A DNA stretch of 64,000 bases, from positions 1 to 64,000 of the forward strand of contig PPNB01000027.1 in assembly GCA_003707115.1 (NCBI GenBank), written 5' to 3'. The notes below the pieces were generated by a model. That model did no database searches. It was not told the origin of the DNA and saw only the letters and a list, made by a program, of their open reading frames with translations. Within the stretch, counting starts at the first letter, position 1. Each line of letters begins with the position of its first letter. Below are positions 3,860 to 64,000 of this stretch, one piece after another. Both the position numbers and the translations under genes were made by a program. This DNA is from Tortispora ganteri. Lineage: Eukaryota.

Positions 3860-6586
3860 CTATGAATCAAATTCTACAAGATTCTTTGAAGATTCCGGTG
3901 CAGTGAATACCGATGTAGTGTTCGTAATTTTTCCTGCCGCTGAAATATCGCCCAGTCCTGTGTCAGTGATTTCCGCATTGGAGAGTAGATCTAGGTCGTT
4001 CTGATTCGCATGCTCATTGTCTTCCTCGTCGTCGTTGTCAGCAACACTAGAGTAAGTGGTTATGGTAGTCGTGTACTGATTCGTTGCGTCTGATCCTGCT
4101 TGGTTGCGACTCAAAAGTCCGTCAACAAGGTCTCGAAGCGTCAAAGATTTTGCTTGGCTTTGAGAAAGTGGCTTTAGACGCACAGATGCTGCAAGGTCGG
4201 TAGAAAACAGTTTCTCGAGCATTTCGTCAGCCAGTATTATCATTCGGAAAGTCGGTAAGGTGATGTGAAGAGGGTGATTCGGATCTAATGCAGCATTAGC
4301 AGTGATCTTGTCTGAAGAGCTGTCTTTAGAGGTGTTACTAGACTCTACTGGAGTTGTCTCTGTAGGTGTTGCATAATCAAACGCCCTTTTAATAAAATCA
4401 GACACAGCTCCGAGGTAAGTCTCGCCCGGAACAGGCAGGGCACTACTCTGTTGCCCATTGCTATCAACCGATATTTGTCCAGCCGCCACCGGATTGCCCA
4501 TGAATGCAGTTGTATAAGAAGTTTTCTTAGTCACAGTATTCCTCCTAGTTGGTTTTGAATGATTACTCTGTCCAGACTTCTCATTGCTAGATTGGCGTGG
4601 GCTCTGTACTTCTTCTTCAATCTTTAAGGTGATCCAATGACGCGTGATGAACAAAAATCCTTCAGACATTTGCAAAATTCCATCTCTATCAACGCATCCA
4701 TCTTCATCTTCGTCGTACAAGTTAAAGAAATATTCCATTGATGCCATTATATCTGACTCTTTAAGACGAGCAAGTCCAATGACAACCTGCTGCAGTGTTA
4801 ACTCCTCGCTAAAGCCAGAATCGTTCTTGCACCAATTTCTGTAGAGGCGATTAAGGAAATCATGCGAATCAGTAGCCCAGTCTGTAATATTAGACATAAA
4901 GTATATAAATGCCTGAAAGTCCATGCTTGTTCTTTCGGATCCCATACCAATACGTGAAGTTTGAATGGCTTGGTGAAACCTGTCATAAATAATGCCTATA
5001 TCATCAGAAGAGAATTTTCCAGGATTCAACAAATTACGCAGCTGAGTGCGTTTAGCAAATGATTCAATGCCTTCCAAAACTGAATTGTTATGTTTCTGTC
5101 GGTGTTTTGCAATCATATCCTCCGTAATGACTGAAAATTCTTTAAAGGCCACTACCAGTAGCTCTTGGAATTTGGTAATAGCTCTGATCCTTTCATGTCT
5201 CGAATTAGGGTGAGCGGAATCGCCAAGATGGTTGAAATAGTCCTTTATAATGGATATAAAGGCTCCATCGTCACTGGCGTCTAGAAGTTCTTCGCCATTG
5301 ATTCGCAGTATCGCAAGTGCAATTTGGAACAATACCCTTGGACCTTCCAAGAAAAGTACATCGACTACTCTGAACGCAAAAACAAGAGGCATCGAATTAA
5401 TGAACAAAGACAAAAACCAAGGTAATGATACGACAGAGAGCTGAACATCTTGTTTCACTAAATGGTCCCACAATATAGGCATAGTCTTCTCAACCAGGGA
5501 TTCAAAAACCTTCTGATCCAGTAGGACACCGTACATTGTCTTGGAGTAGTACCCCGGAATATAGTCATTACACAGTTTTGTCAAGAGCCAGTAAGCCTGT
5601 TCTTCTGACATGTAAATCAGAAACCCAGCCACGACGATGTTCATTGCCTGACAGTATCCAACCTCGACATTTTCGAACGCATACACTTGCAAAACACGTC
5701 TCAGGCGATCTATGCCTTCTGAATCAAGGTAGCCCGGATACTCTGGTAAAGAGCGGTTGAGATCTTTTTCTATCTCTTCGACAGCGACAGAATCCCTGCC
5801 CTGGTATTTCTTGACTAGGAGCTGGTAGTTTCCTGCGTTTTCAGATCTGAGTCTGGAAGATCCCGACAGAAGTTCCCAGAGCTCTCCACGGAGTCTGTTT
5901 GGTAGCCCTATGCGCACGAGCTTGTAAAACGTAGGAGATCGCGCAATTGTGACGTTACGGCCATGACCCTGGAAGTAGTCTGCCCATAGCCGCATTTTGG
6001 ACTTGTCGCGCAGTTTGCGTGGGTCACCGGGATAGTGATAAATTTGTCCGAGGCCTCCCGGAGGCACAGGTCCCTTTCTGTCAGACATAAGATACTCTGA
6101 GTAGAATGTAGCTATAAAAGCTTTCATGTCTTTCATTGATTTAACGTTTTCGCGAAGCTGCTGTTTCAGGATCTCACAGAACTCTTCAGCCAACTGGTGG
6201 GAGACGGTGAAGTGGCAGGCGATTTTGATCTGATGCAGTGTCAAAAACGAAATAACATAGGCATAACTAGGAGATGCGAGTCTTTCTAGTCGCTTGACGG
6301 AGCTCAGAGGGATTGCAAAAAGGCATGCTCTGTTTGAATCCGACTTAAAGCATATGTAATTTTCAGACAAGTAAAGCTTCCCCGGAAATGTAGGTACTTG
6401 CGATGGCGTCGATACTGTTGGTGAAAGGGCAAATTCTGCAGTTACAGATGCAAGGATGTGCTGTGATCGCGGTAAAGCAAAGAAAGCTCTGAAAGCCGCG
6501 TCCTTAGCGGAGTTGGACTGGGGTTCGTCGAAGATAACGTTCCGCGCAGCGACTGCTTTGTCCTTCAGAGAGGCCAGAAAAGACAT
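3860..6586 (-). CDS. MDR1: Rab GTPase-activating protein with GRAM, TBC and EF-hand domains (Gyp2/Mdr1)
   Basis: TBC motifs IEKDLNRSLP and GYCQAMN, N-terminal GRAM-like region, EF-hand YDEDEDGCVDRD. Confidence 0.9.
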   Translation of the reverse strand: MSFLASLKDKAVAARNVIFDEPQSNSAKDAAFRAFFALPRSQHILASVTAEFALSPTVSTPSQVPTFPGKLYLSENYICFKSDSNRACLFAIPLSSVKRLERLASPSYAYVISFLTLHQIKIACHFTVSHQLAEEFCEILKQQLRENVKSMKDMKAFIATFYSEYLMSDRKGPVPPGGLGQIYHYPGDPRKLRDKSKMRLWADYFQGHGRNVTIARSPTFYKLVRIGLPNRLRGELWELLSGSSRLRSENAGNYQLLVKKYQGRDSVAVEEIEKDLNRSLPEYPGYLDSEGIDRLRRVLQVYAFENVEVGYCQAMNIVVAGFLIYMSEEQAYWLLTKLCNDYIPGYYSKTMYGVLLDQKVFESLVEKTMPILWDHLVKQDVQLSVVSLPWFLSLFINSMPLVFAFRVVDVLFLEGPRVLFQIALAILRINGEELLDASDDGAFISIIKDYFNHLGDSAHPNSRHERIRAITKFQELLVVAFKEFSVITEDMIAKHRQKHNNSVLEGIESFAKRTQLRNLLNPGKFSSDDIGIIYDRFHQAIQTSRIGMGSERTSMDFQAFIYFMSNITDWATDSHDFLNRLYRNWCKNDSGFSEELTLQQVVIGLARLKESDIMASMEYFFNLYDEDEDGCVDRDGILQMSEGFLFITRHWITLKIEEEVQSPRQSSNEKSGQSNHSKPTRRNTVTKKTSYTTAFMGNPVAAGQISVDSNGQQSSALPVPGETYLGAVSDFIKRAFDYATPTETTPVESSNTSKDSSSDKITANAALDPNHPLHITLPTFRMIILADEMLEKLFSTDLAASVRLKPLSQSQAKSLTLRDLVDGLLSRNQAGSDATNQYTTTITTYSSVADNDDEEDNEHANQNDLDLLSNAEITDTGLGDISAAGKITNTTSVFTAPESSKNLVEFDS

Positions 6587-10393: not shown

Positions 10394-11573
10394 TTAGCCA
10401 TAGCGCATCCGGCCGCTGGAATCAACGACGACTTTGCGATACTCTTTACGATCATCTCTAGCTGCTCCATAGCGTAAACCAACCTTACCAGATTTCGCAG
10501 GTACGAACTTAAATATGAACTTGTCACCTTCGTACTTAGAACCAAGTACAACTTTTGTTTTCGCTTTTTTAATACCAGCAGCTACTGCTGTCTCAAAACT
10601 CTTCTGTAGAACATCCGCAGCGGGGTGAAGTCGTAATTCCTTTGCAGCAGCATCCGCAGTGACTATTTCACTCTCTCCGACAACCGTATAGTATGGCTTT
10701 TTAGCACCTATCGGCATCGCAACTTCCGATATGTTCTCCAAAACCGGAATCTGCTCGTCTGTGTACTTCTCGCCAGTCCGGAAATCAGTTGAGGACAGCA
10801 TAGGTTGACGCTCTGAATTCTTACCCTCAAAAATAGGTAAGGCTTTATATAAACGTTGTTCCATTCTTATAGCATCAGGTTCAATCTTGTCCTAAAGCAA
10901 TGATGTTAGTATTCGAGCGTAGGAGAAATTAAGTCGCAACAGGTGTTCAGAATCTTATATTGTAACCACGATTGCGGTCTTATAGACTAATCGAACAAAA
11001 TTGTATAAGTAATATTCATCAAATAGGCACACTAGATATGCGCTCAGCTAGAATTGTTAAAAAGGTACTTACCGCTTGCTGTAGTTGGTCCTCGACATGG
11101 GCCAACCGTATAACCGCAAAAATGCGTTCAGGCTTTACACCCAGTTCTTCACTGACAGTGCGAACAGGTTGCTTCTCTACCAACACACGATGTACTATAT
11201 CTTCCTTTAATGCCGGACTTAAAGCCAATCCTGACATTGTGAACGGGTTCATAGGAAACGGTCGTAGCGATTCCGGATAGGGTCGGGCAATAAACTTCCA
11301 AGGTAGGCCGAACTCTCTGCTTTGTGCAACAAAAAAATTGGGAACATGATTATTGGATAAGCGAGCGTATCTGTTTTTCACATATTCACCCTTCATGTTT
11401 TTAGGGCCCAGCCAGTCTATCATTTGCTGTCTCCACCTTGTGGTCCCTCGAAGTTCCTGCTCGGTGAAAGTGTTTCGCACAGGGTATTGTGGTCGTATAC
11501 GCGTGCGTATGTGTCTTATCGAGACATAACTGCCAACTTGCCGGCTTGTATGTGCGACCGGATGCCTGTTCAT
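10394..11573 (-). CDS. MRPS35: Mitochondrial small-subunit ribosomal protein mS45 (Mrps35/Bot1); exons 11573-11073 and 10891-10394
   Basis: WLGPKN..GEY..N.Y and LRPFPMNP motifs, C-terminal KVGLRYGAARDDRK. Phase-0 intron 11072-10892 (GTAAGT, TACTAAC, TAG) joins the two ORF-track fragments in frame. Confidence 0.9.
10943..11026 (-). ncRNA. Intronic box C/D snoRNA candidate guiding LSU rRNA 2'-O-methylation
   Basis: On the host strand: box C TGATGA (11021-11016), antisense element GTTCGATTAGTCT (10996-10984), degenerate D' AAGA (10981-10978), C' GTGGTTA (10969-10963), box D CTGA (10950-10947). The guide is complementary to the conserved LSU segment AGACUAAUCGAAC. Confidence 0.75.
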
Positions 11574-16927: not shown

Positions 16928-17956
16928 ATGATCCGTAAACAAATGGCTAGAAATGCAAGAACACTTGCTACGGAAACCTCAAAAGTAATCAAAAAGACAT
17001 CAGTGACTTCTCTTCTTACTCCATGGTGCGAGCTGCAGCAAGACTATTATGACAGTGGTATCCTTACTAGACGAACAACATTAGCAATGAAGCAAGGCAC
17101 TAAGACACATGCTAAAATAGAGAAGATATACGAGCTGCCATTTGAAAGCATGATAATTGAAGTACCTGTTCTAACTTTCCAAGATAGGCGTAGTACAGAG
17201 TTACTGTTGACTTACGGAAAGCTTCGCGCTATTACCCATCCGTCAATCGCGAAGTCACCCGCAGGACTTAATATGGTATGCGAAGTAAAACTTTTTGGCC
17301 ATATAAGCGGCTGTGATGTCACTGGTATCATTGACGCTGTAGGATTTGGCCAGAAAAGCCCTCAAGACTCCCCAAAGATATACCTTCAAGAACTGAAAAC
17401 TGTTCATGGAAAATCACAAGTCTCGAAATCACAGAAAGCAGCCGCAAGACTACAGGCAATGGTCTATTACAAACTATTCAATGGACTTGCCAATGGATCA
17501 TTTAGTCTTCCTGACTTTCTTGCTCGCCAGGGCCTGGAATTAAATAAACCACTCAACCATGCCCTGCTGGAGGTCGCTTTAGAGGCTAACATTATTTCGT
17601 CGCCTAGTCAAATTAAGAGCTTCGGCGAACTTGCAAAACTAGTGCAAACAGCCTTCTCACAGTTTGAAGGAATGGTCAGTGAAGAATTGTGTACTGAGTA
17701 TATCAATGATACTAATACAAGTGTGACACACGACAAATACATCTTCGACGAAGAATTAGTATCTTCGTTTCTCAGCGATAGAGTGCAGCTTTTTCTCAAA
17801 AATAGGGAACCACGAGGTGTCCCAGTATCTGAGGCATTCAAGTGCCGTATATGCCCTTTCTCTCCTAGATGCCCTATTACTACAAGCATCGCAGCTGGTC
17901 TACCTCTCCCGCAAATATCAGAACCACCAAAATTGCACTTCACTCAAATAGACTAG
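16928..17956 (+). CDS. EXO5: Exonuclease V (Exo5/Dem1) with 4Fe-4S cysteine ligands
   Basis: SVTSLLTPWCELQ, MKQGTKTH, GIID, ELKT, QAMVY and KCRICPFSPRC motifs. Confidence 0.9.
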   Translation: MIRKQMARNARTLATETSKVIKKTSVTSLLTPWCELQQDYYDSGILTRRTTLAMKQGTKTHAKIEKIYELPFESMIIEVPVLTFQDRRSTELLLTYGKLRAITHPSIAKSPAGLNMVCEVKLFGHISGCDVTGIIDAVGFGQKSPQDSPKIYLQELKTVHGKSQVSKSQKAAARLQAMVYYKLFNGLANGSFSLPDFLARQGLELNKPLNHALLEVALEANIISSPSQIKSFGELAKLVQTAFSQFEGMVSEELCTEYINDTNTSVTHDKYIFDEELVSSFLSDRVQLFLKNREPRGVPVSEAFKCRICPFSPRCPITTSIAAGLPLPQISEPPKLHFTQID

Positions 17957-28873: not shown

Positions 28874-30532
28874 ATGGAAGCAAAGCAGATCAACAGTGGT
28901 AGTAGTTTTAATTTTCAATCTAGGAGGTCTGTAGTTCATTCCACAAAAGGTATTGTATGCAGTTCACAAACGCAGGCTTCTGCTGCTGGCGTGAAGATTC
29001 TTGAGAAAGGCGGGAATTGCGTCGATGCTTGCGTAGCTGCAGCTGCAGCTTTGACAGTACTCGAACCACATATGACTGGTATTGGAGGTGATATGTTTGC
29101 TTTATTTTACGAAAATTCTACCAAATCTGTTTACGGTATAAATGGGTCTGGCAGAAGCCCCGCAGGACTCACCTATAAACTCGCCAAATCTGTCTCGGAC
29201 ACTCCACGACTTAATGCCGAGTCTATACATGCAGTCACAGTACCCGGTGCTTTTGCCGGGTGGGTAGATTCAATTGAGAAATGGGGATCGGGATTGTCTT
29301 TGGATGAAATACTGGCACCCGCTATAGATATGGCTGAGAATGGATGGCTAGTAGGCGAGATTACTGCCGACCTATGGGAGAAAGGCATTGCTGCAATTCG
29401 GCGCTGGCCGTCGAACGGCACCTCTTTGCTTACAAAAAACGGTCTAGCTCCAAAAATGGGCGAGTTTTTTACTAACAAAGAGCTTGCAAATACCTTCAGG
29501 GTACTAGCCAAGGGAGGCAAGCAGGCATTCTATGACGGACCGATTGGAGACAAGATTCTAGAAGATTTGCAGAAGCGTGGGTCAACAATGGTTAAGCAAG
29601 ACTTACTAAATCACAAATCTACTTTTGTAGATCCTATAAGTCTACAATATGATGACTTGAAAGTATGGGAGATTCCCCCCAACGGACAGGGGCTTGTGGC
29701 ATTACAAGTACTAGGAATGTTTAAATATACCAACTGTGAGACTGCTCAACACAACAGCGTTGAGTATCTGCATGCTATAATAGAGCTTCTAAAGCTAGCG
29801 TTTAACGATGCCAGCAGACATATAGCTGATCCGGAACATATGACTATTAGCGCTGAGGACCTGCTATCGGACGCTTACCTAAAAAGCCGAGCCTCTGTAT
29901 TCAGCAAAGAACATGCCAAACACGAACTGCTGAAGGATTCCATGTACGATTCTGATACTGTATACCTCACTGCAACAGACAAAGACGGAAATGCATGTAG
30001 TTTCATCAACTCTGTATATCAACTTTTCGGATCTGGATTAGTACCTGAAGGACTGGGATTTGCGTTGCAAAACCGTGGAGCCAATTTCTCTTTGTCTAAG
30101 CGGTCGGCAAATACTGCGGGTCCAAGCAAAAGACCTTATCACACAATTATACCTGCTATGGTGACTAAAACGAATGGAGATCTGTATTGTACATATGGAG
30201 TCATGGGCGCCTTCATGCAACCTCAAGGGCACGTACAGGTGTTTTTGAATATGCATAAGTTTGGCATGAATGTTCAGGAAGCGCTAGACGCACCTAGAGT
30301 CTGTGTTTCGCCGTCTATAGATGGATCGACTGAAGCAATCATCCAGATCGAAGAAGGCATCCCAATCGACGTGATCGAAGGACTAAAAGCAAAAGGCCAC
30401 ACTATTGAGATTGTACGTGGTACTGAACGGGCACTCTTCGGCAGAGGCCAGATAATCAAGGCTGAGGAAGGAACAAGGTACAGCGGAGGCAGTGATCCGC
30501 GGGGCGACGGTTCAGCCATTCCTCAAGTCTAA
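28874..30532 (+). CDS. Gamma-glutamyltranspeptidase-family Ntn hydrolase, soluble YwrD-like type
   Basis: GGNCVDA, TGIGGDMF, PPNGQG, nucleophile Thr in SDTVYLTATD, KRPYHTIIP, MQPQGH, SDPRGDG. No signal anchor. Confidence 0.9.
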   Translation: MEAKQINSGSSFNFQSRRSVVHSTKGIVCSSQTQASAAGVKILEKGGNCVDACVAAAAALTVLEPHMTGIGGDMFALFYENSTKSVYGINGSGRSPAGLTYKLAKSVSDTPRLNAESIHAVTVPGAFAGWVDSIEKWGSGLSLDEILAPAIDMAENGWLVGEITADLWEKGIAAIRRWPSNGTSLLTKNGLAPKMGEFFTNKELANTFRVLAKGGKQAFYDGPIGDKILEDLQKRGSTMVKQDLLNHKSTFVDPISLQYDDLKVWEIPPNGQGLVALQVLGMFKYTNCETAQHNSVEYLHAIIELLKLAFNDASRHIADPEHMTISAEDLLSDAYLKSRASVFSKEHAKHELLKDSMYDSDTVYLTATDKDGNACSFINSVYQLFGSGLVPEGLGFALQNRGANFSLSKRSANTAGPSKRPYHTIIPAMVTKTNGDLYCTYGVMGAFMQPQGHVQVFLNMHKFGMNVQEALDAPRVCVSPSIDGSTEAIIQIEEGIPIDVIEGLKAKGHTIEIVRGTERALFGRGQIIKAEEGTRYSGGSDPRGDGSAIPQV

Positions 30533-39037: not shown

Positions 39038-40369
39038 TCATCGCGATGCTGGCGGAGTCCACAGTTTCGACGTAGATGAAGGGGTAGGAGTAGTGGATCC
39101 GCTGGAAGGAACGGTACTGAATGCAGCTATTCTTCTTTCAGGTTTGGGTGACTCACAGAACGCACCGTCCATCAGATGCTCAGATGCCAAAGGACGTCCA
39201 GGAAGGCGGATGGGGCTTTCGTTTCTAGAATTAATGCTGATCGGCGCAGTTGCTGCATTGCCGTTTCCGTTTCCGTTGCCATTGCCATTGCCATTGCCGC
39301 CGTAACCGCTGACATTAGCATCAGATTGTCGTCTTATTTGCAGGTTATTCGTTATAGTAGGCAGCAAGTTGGCTTCATCTTCGGCAGTGGGCTCTTTGGA
39401 TATGTTCATCAAAGTAGGAGTGACCAGGGTCTTGTCCTGGGTCGAAGACACGTCAGACGGACGTCTTGGTTGTAAGAACGGATGCTGAATAGCGTCGTCA
39501 ATAGTCATTCTCTTCGATATGTCTACTGTGAGGCAGCGATTGATGAAATCCTGAGCGTGCAGTGATATCTCAGCCCAGTCTTCTTCATCGTAGCCGAATT
39601 CGCCGTTAAGGATAGCCTGCATTTCTTCTGCCGTTGTATCTCTATCGAACGGTGTGTAACCGCAGAGCAGAAAGTAGGCAATTACTCCTATAGCCCACAC
39701 ATCGACGGGTTTTCCATGACCTGTTTTTTGAAAAATCTCCGGTGCCATATATCCGGGTGTACCGCACGTCGTGGTGAGAACGCGGAACCGCTCTTCATCT
39801 ATCACGCGAGAAAGACCAAAATCAGCAATTAAAACCTCAGCGTTTTCATCTGGGGTACGAAACAGTAAATTTTCCGGTTTAAGGTCGCGGTGAACCACAC
39901 CGTGGTGATGCAAGTATTGTACAGCGGACGTAATCGATCGTATTATCTTTGCCGCATCTGATTCGAAATACGCCCCCAGTTTGCATATCCGATCAAACAG
40001 TTCGCCGCCCATTGCTAAATCTGTAATCAAATAAAGATTATTTCTTGTCTCAAAATAGTCAACTAATGTTAAGATGTTTTTGTGGCCTTGTGAGATCCGC
40101 TTCAGCACGGCAATCTCGTTCCTAACTAGATGCTCCCTACCGATCATCAATCTCTTACTAATAATCTTTGCGGCATAGTGGTCATTAGTCTCACAATGAA
40201 TGGCAACTTGTACCGTCGAATACGTGCCTTGACCCAATACTTTGCCCTAAAAGTTCATTTTGGTTAGTAATGTTATCATATTATGATGATCGTGTCTTTA
40301 GCAGTTACTTACCAGCTTGTATGGACATGGTCGCGGCAAAGGGACGGGCGATCTCTGCGAAGTCGGCAT
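39038..40369 (-). CDS. Ca2+/calmodulin-dependent kinase, CmkB / S. pombe Cmk1 type; exons 40369-40313 and 40246-39038
   Basis: Intron 40312-40247 (GTAAGT, TACTAAC, TAG) gives PCPYKLGKVLGQGTY. Also GREHLVRNEIAVLK, HRDLKPEN, LTTTCGTPGYMAPE. Confidence 0.92.
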
Positions 40370-60870: not shown

Positions 60871-62562
60871 TTAGTCAAGCAAACTTTCGGCATTTTTGTA
60901 CGGCTCAATAGCGCATTTGTATTCAGCCCATTTCGCCTCAGCACCAGTCATTTCAAGTGTCTCAATTCTCCCCTTTCCTTGCCAGTGTTTAGCCATATAT
61001 TCCATAAAACTCTCTCCAGTAGCTTTATAGTGGAGTGCCCATGCAGCTTTATGAGCTGCACCCAGTGCACATGCGTTATCCCCAGCTTGAAGTAATCGAT
61101 GTGCACCTTCAGTGGGTCCTAATACCTCTGATAGTACCTGAGCAATAGCAGGGTTCTTAGAGCCTCCTCCAACCAGGTACATTCGTCTCGGCCGTCCATT
61201 ATTGCCAGCGAGCATGTTCTGTGATCGCAAACGCATCGAGAGTCCTTGGCTTTCAATTATCATACGAGCATCTTCTTCGGATAATGCTGCGCTTGTCTCT
61301 TTAGTTAGCACTCCTTTCTCGACCGAAAACCTAGTTATTTGAGGTTTCCTATCAGGGATAATTTCGCTCAATGGGAAATAAAATCCGATCCGAAACTTAT
61401 CCGGGCTTTTGCGGTCAAGAATTCTGGATCTTAGCACTATGTCATTGAACTTGTCCCAAGATTTTGACGCCTTTGCACTACTGTCAATGGCGTCTCGAAT
61501 CTGTTCGCGTGCAAGTCCTCCATTGCAATAGCACAGCATACCCATATAAAGACCAGGAGAAGTAGGATGTAAAAACAGGTGATACTCGTCAGATGGCGCA
61601 AACACCTCAGTAGATGTAAGTAATGTTGTACTCGTACCCAGGGATATCATGACATCGTTAGGCTGCAAATCTAAAGATAAAATTGTAGCAGGATTGTCCC
61701 CAGTGAAAGGTATGATTTCACAATCAGCTTTGAATCCATACCTCTGAACAAAATACGATGAAATAAGTCCCAGAGAATCTTTTCCATCAATTGGGAAGCC
61801 GAGCATATCAATTAACCTCGCAACTGAAGGATCTTCTGGACTAGACGCGCCAGCAACTAATTGGACTAAAGGCATATAGTAATCGTTCTTGGTAATATCC
61901 CAGAGATTCATGCCACAGATATCGGAAACGTCAATTGCAGCCCATTTACCAAGGAAAACGGAAGCCAAGAAACTAGATATTATCGATATTCTAGCTGTCC
62001 TTGCGTACCCATCAGGGTCGACGCGTCTGACTCTCATAATCTGAGGACCAGTGAAGCGGTAGTGACCACGCGAACCTGTAATTTCGGCAAGATGCTGAGA
62101 GCCGCCAACTTCATTCTCGTGAGCGTCTACTTCAAGTTTAGTAGAGTGGTCTTGCCAGTTAGGACTATACTGACGAGCAAATGCATTAGGGGCCAATTGG
62201 TTTAAGAGAGAATCGGATGGACTAAGCGAGCTGAGTAGTTCTGGAGCTTGAGCTGACCAGTAAACTGAACCATGTTGTTGGCAAGCCCCTGACAACGCTT
62301 TCACGCGAGAGAAGTCAAAACCCGAAACTTTTAGTCGCTGCAATATGATATCAAGAGCCTCGAGCCACATAGCTACAGGAGCAAATATTTCTTGTTCCTT
62401 TTCATTATGTAAAACTCCATGCACTGTGTTATATTTTGGCAGATCTTCGTCGAATTTGAGTGTTTCGTGGACGACGAGATCCAGTCGGGAGTCAACTCCT
62501 ATGACTTTTAATTGCTGCGTGGAAAGGTCAAAACCAAGGAACACGTCCGCTTTTAAAGACAT
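60871..62562 (-). CDS. XKS1: Xylulokinase
   Basis: LGFDLSTQQLK, SGACQQHGSVYW, PNWQDHST, FTGDNPAT, SLGTSTT, CYCNG, VGGGSKN. Confidence 0.97.
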   Translation of the reverse strand: MSLKADVFLGFDLSTQQLKVIGVDSRLDLVVHETLKFDEDLPKYNTVHGVLHNEKEQEIFAPVAMWLEALDIILQRLKVSGFDFSRVKALSGACQQHGSVYWSAQAPELLSSLSPSDSLLNQLAPNAFARQYSPNWQDHSTKLEVDAHENEVGGSQHLAEITGSRGHYRFTGPQIMRVRRVDPDGYARTARISIISSFLASVFLGKWAAIDVSDICGMNLWDITKNDYYMPLVQLVAGASSPEDPSVARLIDMLGFPIDGKDSLGLISSYFVQRYGFKADCEIIPFTGDNPATILSLDLQPNDVMISLGTSTTLLTSTEVFAPSDEYHLFLHPTSPGLYMGMLCYCNGGLAREQIRDAIDSSAKASKSWDKFNDIVLRSRILDRKSPDKFRIGFYFPLSEIIPDRKPQITRFSVEKGVLTKETSAALSEEDARMIIESQGLSMRLRSQNMLAGNNGRPRRMYLVGGGSKNPAIAQVLSEVLGPTEGAHRLLQAGDNACALGAAHKAAWALHYKATGESFMEYMAKHWQGKGRIETLEMTGAEAKWAEYKCAIEPYKNAESLLD

Positions 62563-62570
62563 AGCGTAAT

Positions 62571-62834
62571 TTACTTAGTATCCCAGGCTAGCCACTTTTC
62601 TGGATTTTTGTTAAACTGAGGCCAGGGGGGTATAACCACTACAGCAAGAGCGACAGATAGAATGGCAAATGTAACCCAGCAGTAGAGAGAGCTTTGGAAT
62701 GTGAAACCGACAAGAAAAGCAATAAGTGCAGCAATATAAGTGCCAATATGTACAACTTTATCACAGAACAATTGACTTGGAAAATCAATTGGCCCTTCAA
62801 TCACAGAAGAAATGTCGGCAATTAGTTGGTCCAT
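62571..62834 (-). CDS. SPC1: Signal peptidase complex subunit Spc1 (SPC12)
   Basis: PIDFPSQ, two TM segments, VVIPPWPQFNKNPEKWL. Confidence 0.92.
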   Translation of the reverse strand: MDQLIADISSVIEGPIDFPSQLFCDKVVHIGTYIAALIAFLVGFTFQSSLYCWVTFAILSVALAVVVIPPWPQFNKNPEKWLAWDTK

Positions 62835-63010
62835 TTAGTTTTTGGGGGAGTCTAGCCTTTATATGTGCGTGGATGGATTAGTTATGATTTCATACGGTTG
62901 CCATGGGCGAAATTTACCCGTGTAATATTTATCCGGGGAGCACACACTATTACGTATTGTGCAATTTGAGATTCATTAAATTCATTTTTGTGCGTAATGC
63001 ATTGATAATA

Positions 63011-64000
63011 TTATCTTCCAGTCAGAGATTTGACAAATTCTGCAAATTGACGACGAAATACTTTGTCGTCAACAGTCTGCAGCGCCTGCACATACACATC
63101 AATCTGCTGATTCGGTACACCTGATTCGGGGAAAAAAGACTGTGCCAAGTATGCGCTGAATCGCGGCCAGCATATATGTAGACATTTTTGCACATGCCCA
63201 ATTTCACCGAGAACTAAACGGAATTCTCCATCTGAGTAGTTCGATTTGATATCAGTAGAAACCGACCAGCAGATCCTGTTCACCGTAACATAGAATGAAT
63301 CAGGCATCGCAAACACTGACACACCAGCAGGCAGAGGTAGCGACGGATCTTTATCCGCTAATGCAACCATAACTTTTCCTAAAACTGCCAACGCTGTTTT
63401 TTGTGTTACCGCGTTGCTTTGATCTTCGGAGTATTCCAAGATGGTCTGTAGCATCGATTCCAAAACGTTTCGCAGCTCTTCTCGCAACAGAACCCAAGTA
63501 AGCCCATTGGCAACTATCGTCTGAATAAAATGCAAGTACGCTTTTCTCAAATTATAGACTTGAAGAAAATAGTCAGTGCCCGAGGACGTGCCATTATCGT
63601 TTTTCGGTAGTGTCATGTGGTCCACTAGGTTAGAAAGCAGCGGCCCAATTAGCTCAACTAATATATTTCCTGCTCCATCTTTAGCATACAGGTGAATTAG
63701 TTGACCAATGAAAGAGAGAAAGTCTCCTAGTTCATCTGGTCCTGCATTAGACAACAAACTGGTAATAAGTCGAGGAATGTACTCAAAAATTTCACTTCCA
63801 ATGCTTGTGAGCATTCTAGCAAAGGTAAACCTAGCTGCATCTCTTATGATTTCATATTGCGCTAGCATCTCTAACGGAGTAATGACTGCTTCTGCGCTGT
63901 TTTTCATTCTGAGTTTCACATTAGCACTTTCTTTCATTTGCTGTTGTGCACCATCGGAAAATCCACGCGAAAATGTTCCTATTGCCATAATGTCATGATG
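63011..64000 (-). CDS. LOS1: Exportin-T (Los1), C-terminal part; gene continues beyond the window
   Basis: IMAIGTFSRGF, IRDAARFTFARM, DFLSFIGQLIH, SGTD...LRKAYLHFI. Frame is open to the window edge. Confidence 0.85.
   Translation of the reverse strand, partial: HHDIMAIGTFSRGFSDGAQQQMKESANVKLRMKNSAEAVITPLEMLAQYEIIRDAARFTFARMLTSIGSEIFEYIPRLITSLLSNAGPDELGDFLSFIGQLIHLYAKDGAGNILVELIGPLLSNLVDHMTLPKNDNGTSSGTDYFLQVYNLRKAYLHFIQTIVANGLTWVLLREELRNVLESMLQTILEYSEDQSNAVTQKTALAVLGKVMVALADKDPSLPLPAGVSVFAMPDSFYVTVNRICWSVSTDIKSNYSDGEFRLVLGEIGHVQKCLHICWPRFSAYLAQSFFPESGVPNQQIDVYVQALQTVDDKVFRRQFAEFVKSLTGR

Follow-up and report, generated by a model that had tools for sequence, protein, structure and literature searches.

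In the yeast Tortispora ganteri, the gene for the 12-kDa signal peptidase complex subunit (SPC1) lies directly upstream of the xylulokinase gene XKS1 on the minus strand of contig PPNB01000027.1 (GenBank assembly GCA_003707115.1), of which positions 1 to 64,000, referred to here as the window, were analysed. The two genes are almost contiguous, no ATG occurs between their start codons, and the same gene order, again without an intervening ATG, recurs in a second distant lineage. Our favoured interpretation, to which we assign a probability of roughly 55%, is that the SPC1-XKS1 pair forms a shared expression unit conserved in budding yeasts, in which the leader of the Xks1 mRNA would span the SPC1 open reading frame (ORF). 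The absence of any ATG between the starts in two very distant yeasts suggests that ribosomes reach the kinase by scanning through SPC1, and we infer both the co-transcription of the two genes and this scanning route from the arrangement of the locus.

The last 3 kb of the window carry a minus-strand series of a LOS1-like gene, SPC1, XKS1, and an acyl-CoA oxidase gene (POX1), the coordinates of the main features being collected in Table 1. An earlier interpretation made from the letters and their ORFs, here called the sequence-only reading, had named SPC1 and XKS1, and the domain searches agree with both identities. The SPC1 product matches PF06645 with an E value of 1.3e-19 and 70.5 bits (cut-off 23.6), with residues 16 to 83 of 87 aligned to profile positions 1 to 68 of 71. 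XKS1 is assigned as a fungal xylulokinase by its FGGY domains, its full-length alignment, and the N-terminal GFDLSTQQ, and its protein is 95% identical over 100% of the length to a 563-residue Tortispora caseinolytica protein. The N-terminus aligns with those of eight fungal xylulokinases, beginning 3 to 7 residues before the invariant GFDLSTQQ, and the XKS1 ATG, which the sequence-only reading had also used, is therefore the true start. An in-frame stop codon lies 15 nucleotides (nt) upstream of it. The ORF coordinates bear out the tandem of two minus-strand genes 8 nt apart that had been described before, and the two ATGs are separated by 272 nt, so that the reading frames differ.

Spacers of 121 to 662 nt separate the 19 remaining pairs of same-strand neighbours in the window, although one of these, a 154-nt spacer, may be an intron. 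Against these values the 8-nt SPC1-XKS1 spacer is a clear outlier, and it is a stronger anomaly than the depletion of ATG described below. An XKS1 promoter and leader therefore cannot sit in the spacer, and 8 nt leave no room for a 3' end, a promoter, and a leader, even in a compact genome, in line with the earlier claim that a terminator plus a promoter would not fit. The genome is extremely compact. For T. caseinolytica, a review gives 9.2 Mb with 4657 genes and many introns (PMC5499181). Two convergent ORF pairs of the window overlap by 4 nt at their stop codons (17953-17956 and 30529-30532), and the other convergent spacers measure 23 to 107 nt.

Table 1. Features of the SPC1-XKS1 locus in the window and of the corresponding pair in metagenome locus L003
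Feature	Position	Strand	Details
Exportin-t gene, LOS1-like, 3' end	stop at 63011	-	PF19282
Candidate AT-box plus CCGGGG motif, Mig1/CreA type	62927..62938	+	W5-N0-1-SYGGGG match
Two mini upstream ORFs (uORFs)	62882..62904	-	ATG 62904 (MATV-stop) and ATG 62893 (MKS-stop); read from sequence
Candidate TATAAA (TATAAAGG)	62858..62863	-	23 nt before SPC1 ATG; sole TATAWA in the 176-nt LOS1-SPC1 spacer
SPC1, 12-kDa signal peptidase complex subunit	62571..62834	-	87 residues; stop TAA; PF06645
ATG-free stretch, all frames	62563..62831	-	269 nt, between SPC1 and XKS1 ATGs
SPC1-XKS1 spacer, ATTACGCT	62563..62570	-	8 nt, between SPC1 TAA and XKS1 ATG
XKS1, xylulokinase, FGGY family	60871..62562	-	563 residues; ATG at 62562, stop at 60871; Pfam FGGY_N and FGGY_C
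Candidate poly(A) pair TACATA...AAGAAA for a monocistronic SPC1 mRNA	62388..62411	-	160 to 183 nt after SPC1 stop, inside XKS1
L003 SPC1	588-866	same as L003 XKS1	92 residues; PF06645, E = 4.3e-24, 84.8 bits
L003 XKS1	928-2817	same as L003 SPC1	629 residues; starts 61 nt past SPC1

The sequence-only reading had found no ATG in any frame between the two starts, where about four would be expected. Our count is likewise zero, against a mean of 4.2 in mononucleotide shuffles of the 269-nt stretch (P of zero, 0.011) and 4.9 expected from the strand background, and the reverse complement CAT is seen five times. SPC1 contains neither an internal Met codon nor an out-of-frame ATG, and the stretch as a whole contains none, so that the XKS1 ATG is the first one after the SPC1 ATG. 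At the three codon pairs in the window that risk creating an out-of-frame ATG (PW, KW, and AW), the avoiding synonym is used each time. Taken alone, the depletion in the window is modest evidence: among 2222 ATG-to-ATG gaps on both strands, 24 are free of ATG over at least 269 nt, and a gap of this length is thus not rare, which weakens the signal.

More weight comes from a comparative search, in which metagenome contigs scanned with XKS1 yielded four loci (L001 to L004). SPC1 used as a single-protein query gave no metagenome match. A profile built from 32 SPC1 sequences and run against the six-frame translations of the four XKS1 loci matched L003 only, with an E value of 9.5e-30, and the match lies in tandem with XKS1 on the same strand (Table 1). 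The 337 nt between the SPC1 and XKS1 ATGs of this locus contain no ATG, compared with a mean of 5.2 in shuffles (P of zero, 0.0033), and form the longest ATG-free gap on either strand of the 5.1-kb locus, while CAT occurs eight times. The avoiding synonym is used at all four risk pairs here (ND, TC, YV, and KW), giving seven of seven over both loci. Under synonymous recoding the probability of zero ATG is 0.218 for the window and 0.059 for L003.

The XKS1 protein of L003 is 99% identical to the top proteins in the collections, and its best named matches are Brettanomyces nanus (67%), B. naardenensis (65%), and Ogataea and related genera (about 60%). The source is taken to be a Pichiaceae-like yeast because these closest named matches are of the Brettanomyces/Ogataea type. 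Between L003 and the window, identity is about 45% for XKS1 and 32% for SPC1, and the flanks differ, with LOS1 and POX1 in the window and a major facilitator superfamily transporter downstream in L003, leaving the SPC1-XKS1 pair as the only common part. L003 was chosen by XKS1 homology alone, regardless of its ATG content, and is thus a fair replicate; by our own arithmetic, its conservative replicate p comes to about 0.02 (the product of 0.072 for the coding sequence and about 0.29 for the 61-nt spacer at the ATG density of L003). The colinear pair is accordingly conserved between the Tortispora window and a distant Pichiaceae-like lineage. Conserved adjacency with ATG depletion in related genomes, which the sequence-only reading had proposed to look for, is therefore found in one independent distant lineage.

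In the mechanism that we favour, an mRNA yielding Xks1 would have the SPC1 ORF, complete or nearly so, as its leader. Small (40S) ribosomal subunits that do not start at the SPC1 AUG would scan 270 to 340 nt and would then start at the XKS1 AUG, as the interval between the two start codons is free of AUG, and the translation of SPC1 would act as a throttle on Xks1 output. Subunits could get this far in two ways. They may leak past the SPC1 AUG on a bicistronic mRNA, a route that we put forward tentatively, or the transcript may begin at or just after the SPC1 AUG, which we hold to be slightly more doubtful on overall judgement; the data themselves fit leaky scanning and start-site choice equally well. 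Conserved adjacency supports a leader running through SPC1, and it does so without separating bicistronic leaky scanning, transcript starts at or after the SPC1 AUG, and an internal XKS1 promoter. A stronger version of the proposal, possible though rather speculative, is an ancient, selected dicistronic mRNA present in Trigonopsidales-like and Pichiales-like yeasts, which would yield both a housekeeping signal-peptidase subunit and a sugar kinase and in which the SPC1 AUG would be a tunable gate that sets the Xks1 level through its context, the leader length, or a glucose-dependent choice of start site.

The start contexts are less consistent. The sequence-only reading had reported T at position -3 of the SPC1 start and G at -3 of the XKS1 start, and these bases are present in the window, where 18 of 39 ORFs have A at -3, more than any other base. 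It had further taken the weak first and stronger second start as a signature of leaky scanning, which does not hold across the two loci. The earlier bicistronic or start-site proposal is thus partly supported: the L003 tandem with its 337 ATG-free nt supports the leader through SPC1, and the weak-start signature is not conserved.

Several observations weigh against a shared unit. The start contexts of L003 run in the opposite direction to those of the window, with A at -3 and G at +4 around the SPC1 ATG and C at -3 before the XKS1 ATG. The 61-nt spacer of L003 is T-rich and might contain a core promoter or a poly(A) site of its own. ATG-free upstream sequence of at least 235 nt is found at 7 of the 39 ORF starts in the window. 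SPC1 is moreover intrinsically poor in ATG: from the 150 best relatives we kept the 119 that have 70 to 115 residues and an initial M, and 42 of these 119 have no internal Met; 13 of the 119 have no Asn, Asp, His, or Tyr followed by a codon starting with G. When the 119 homologues were back-translated with the codon usage of the window, 7.2% of the trials were free of ATG. The gene order is also far from general. The tandem is present in one of the four metagenome XKS1 loci and is missing from L001, L002, and L004, the second of which belongs to the Candida clade and has no SPC1 upstream of XKS1. In Saccharomyces cerevisiae the two genes lie on different chromosomes. Finally, second genes on bicistronic transcripts of S. 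cerevisiae are described as poorly translated in a transcript study (PMC8573964).

In the loci without the pair, the surroundings of XKS1 vary. The L002 enzyme is 77 to 79% identical to those of C. viswanathii and C. maltosa, and a large ORF, which resembles p-aminobenzoate synthase by eye only, ends about 530 nt upstream of it. The longest ORF at this locus adds a low-complexity N-terminus of 38 residues to XKS1 (2360-2473), the conserved start being the ATG at 2474, which is preceded by 111 ATG-free nt. L001 offers only 369 nt upstream of XKS1, and this T-rich sequence contains no SPC1. L004 looks like a filamentous ascomycete, with introns and another gene upstream of XKS1. In Komagataella, one report places XKS1 next to SOR1 and describes the XKS1 of strain X-33 as not induced by xylose (PMC9036795).

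These observations can also be arranged into a different picture, the main competitor of the shared unit, in which SPC1 and XKS1 would be overlapping monocistronic units. The XKS1 promoter and transcription start would lie in the distal part of the SPC1 ORF in the window or in the spacer in L003, and the poly(A) site of the SPC1 mRNA would fall within the spacer or in the early part of XKS1. ATG would then have to be absent from the last 50 to 100 nt only, the rest being chance in the ATG-poor gene of a small membrane protein, and the adjacency would persist since a break would sever XKS1 from its promoter. The T-rich spacer of L003, which resembles a yeast promoter or 3' end, and the strong start context of the L003 SPC1, which suits a normally translated first gene, fit this picture. 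So does the very compact genome, where tandem spacers of 121 to 200 nt (about 150) are usual and promoters must therefore frequently extend into the gene before them. Chance would leave about 7% of SPC1 coding sequences without an ATG, yet such an outcome is needed in two independent lineages, at about 0.07 each for the coding sequence. The avoiding codons at seven of seven risk pairs also argue against it, as some of these pairs fall at codons 43 to 50 of the 92 in L003, a long way before the XKS1 ATG. The candidate poly(A) pair inside XKS1 mildly favours a separate SPC1 mRNA, being the sole TACATA...AAGAAA pair in 54.5 kb of window coding sequence, but these motifs are of the S. cerevisiae type and uninformative in this genome, and the pair predicts little here because only 1 of 37 real 3' flanks carries it. 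On balance, two monocistronic units appear possible but unlikely to us.

A further alternative, that genome compaction merely brought the two genes together by chance, XKS1 being dispensable or expressed at a low level and the lack of ATG coincidental, seems highly improbable. The 24 similarly long ATG-free gaps in the window and the lack of the pair in three of the four other fungal loci would be compatible with it. XKS1 is, however, intact and 95% identical to the T. caseinolytica protein, and a lineage with only 32% identity in SPC1 shows the same gene order, strand, and absence of ATG. By our estimate, a given gene would stand directly upstream of another in tandem with a frequency of about 1 in 10,000 per genome, assuming about 5,000 genes.

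Ribosomes might also reach XKS1 by termination and reinitiation 8 nt downstream of SPC1, or by internal entry, both together being very unlikely in our view. The close stop and start codons in the window invite the first of these, as does a TGGGA at 62585-62581, 19 to 23 nt before the XKS1 ATG, since TGGGA is the 18S-complementary core of calicivirus restart signals. In L003, by contrast, the spacer measures 61 nt, and the 167 nt before the XKS1 ATG contain no TGGGA. A first ORF of 87 to 92 codons is long for reinitiation in yeast, as judged from work on GCN4, and neither reinitiation nor internal entry needs or explains the ATG depletion. The folds of the leader RNA are not unusually stable at the two loci (z of +1.50 and -0.70), and Rfam returned nothing relevant, so that no significant structure or known element speaks for internal entry. 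We accordingly rejected an internal ribosome entry site or other structured element, and a calicivirus-type restart signal (termination upstream ribosomal binding site, TURBS) was set aside as well, with TGGGA found in the window only and spacers of 8 versus 61 nt.

Removal of the SPC1 ORF from XKS1 mRNAs by an intron or alternative splicing is next to negligible among the explanations considered. Tortispora genomes are said to be intron-rich in the review cited above (PMC5499181), and the sequence offers a GTATGA at 62895 and a TACTAAG at 62580. The next AG after this TACTAAG would delete the XKS1 ATG, though, there is no consensus branch point in the window locus, and positions 301 to 1200 of L003 contain no hexamer resembling a 5' splice site; the signals are thus not common to both loci, and the intron reading was rejected. 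Elsewhere in the window, two candidate introns follow the pattern GTAWGT...YACTAAC...YAG on the minus strand. One (40312-40247) lies just upstream of the kinase ORF 39038-40147, and the other (11072-10892) joins ORFs 11019-11573 and 10394-10864, which probably form one gene.

Returning to the leader through SPC1, the sequence upstream of SPC1 contains several candidate signals. The TATAAA pointed out by the sequence-only reading is present (Table 1), and its position would put transcript starts at or beyond the SPC1 AUG, or else would give a very short leader. In L003, the SPC1 ATG is preceded at 110 nt by TATAAAAA. Going upstream from SPC1, the first AUG is met after 56 nt in the window and after 189 nt in L003; the probable SPC1 leader in the window is bounded by the two mini-uORFs, which lie at least 56 nt ahead of the SPC1 start. 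The heptamer ATCATAA is common to the window (62882-62888) and L003 (531-537), 54 and 57 nt before the SPC1 ATG, respectively, and is the sole item shared in the upstream alignment; by a rough estimate, this sharing at a similar offset is not beyond chance.

The AT-box with CCGGGG noted earlier upstream of SPC1 is likewise present. Matches to the W5-N0-1-SYGGGG pattern are rare, with five distinct ones on both strands of the 64-kb window, and L003 has a Mig1-type match about 389 nt upstream of its SPC1 ATG. A glucose-regulon reading of the site is unsupported, as the other intergenic sites flank genes for a release factor, a gamma-glutamyltranspeptidase, a kinase, and a RasGEF protein.

Among other upstream ORFs in the window, only two reach 57 residues, and both look random. 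Each begins at the first ATG found upstream of a larger gene. One (6776-6603, minus strand) precedes ORF 3860-6586 with 16 nt from stop to ATG, and the other (60643-60470, minus strand) precedes POX1 with 76 nt.

Beyond the four fungal loci, the XKS1 search of the genome_contigs collection returned no yeast but 23 loci from bacteria of the PVC group, and that of the viral_contigs collection returned no loci. The 23 bacterial contigs, from metagenome-assembled genomes, encode xylulokinases with the fungal-type motifs QQHGSV[YF]W and [SA]PNWQDHS and 34 to 41% identity to the yeast enzyme. Their hosts are Verrucomicrobiota, Kiritimatiellia, and other PVC-group or unclassified bacteria, and contamination is unlikely because some of the contigs reach 406 kb.

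The closest relative of the window SPC1 protein that HMMER found among 1.84 billion representative proteins is 45% identical, and a word-index search of the protein collections found no SPC1 relative. The T. caseinolytica XKS1 is present at 95% in the same collections where SPC1 tops out at 45%. Because the protein collections searched hold no close relative, the sequenced Tortispora genome apparently either has no annotation for SPC1 or lacks the gene. A fusion of the two proteins was also looked for, and none of the seven long SPC1-domain proteins scanned carries an FGGY domain. The supplements of PMC6921048 and PMC9036795 gave no match. Our literature search found no description of an SPC1-XKS1 unit, nothing on bicistrons in Tortispora, and no conserved pair of this type in budding yeast.

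Budding yeasts are the textbook case of one mRNA encoding one protein. If the shared unit is real, it would be a natural yeast example of scanning-based expression of two proteins, with old, unrelated genes kept free of intervening ATGs across two orders. It would also explain why the small SPC1 gene escapes annotation, and would offer a compact natural design for making two proteins at a fixed ratio in yeast. Should the two genes prove to be monocistronic instead, the locus would still illustrate clearly how, in a yeast genome of 9 Mb, a promoter can be embedded in the coding sequence next to it.

Control of a main ORF by a short ORF in its leader is well known in yeast, as in GCN4 and CPA1, where a uORF sets the number of ribosomes that reach the main ORF. 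Those uORFs have 2 to 25 codons and yield no stable functional protein, whereas SPC1 is a conserved subunit of 87 to 92 residues.

Bicistronic transcripts of S. cerevisiae are closer in form. According to PMC8573964, they join same-strand neighbours, and the highly expressed cases have short spacers, as is also the case for SPC1 and XKS1. The same study reports that an upstream ORF lowers the translation of the second gene, for example in YOR302W-CPA1, and that the bicistronic transcripts are mostly noise or repressive. Most of these cases are young or have a bicistronic form that amounts to noise or repression, and a separate mRNA exists for the second gene as well. SPC1 and XKS1 differ in being both old and conserved, in having only 8 nt between them, and in forming the same pair again in a distant order.

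The closest resemblance is to the bicistronic loci of green algae, in which, as two reports describe them, a conserved, small first ORF, in many cases for a membrane protein or a complex subunit of small size such as OST4 or TOM22, is followed by a second ORF read by leaky scanning (PMC7896298, PMC11291117). The algal loci are supported by single transcripts seen with Iso-Seq and by a fall in second-ORF output when the start of the first ORF is strengthened, whereas SPC1-XKS1 is proposed here from its sequence, and the host is a budding yeast. As for a weaker start context of the first ORF, also an algal feature, the window has it and L003 does not. The other sequence features described for the algal loci are shared. 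A small first ORF is followed on the same strand by a second one after a short distance (87 residues and 8 nt in the window, 92 residues and 61 nt in L003), and there is no alternative start before the second ORF (0 in 269 nt and 0 in 337 nt). Annotation often passes over the small ORF, as suggested here by the lack of a close SPC1 relative in the protein collections, and, as in the green algae, colinearity is kept over a long evolutionary distance.

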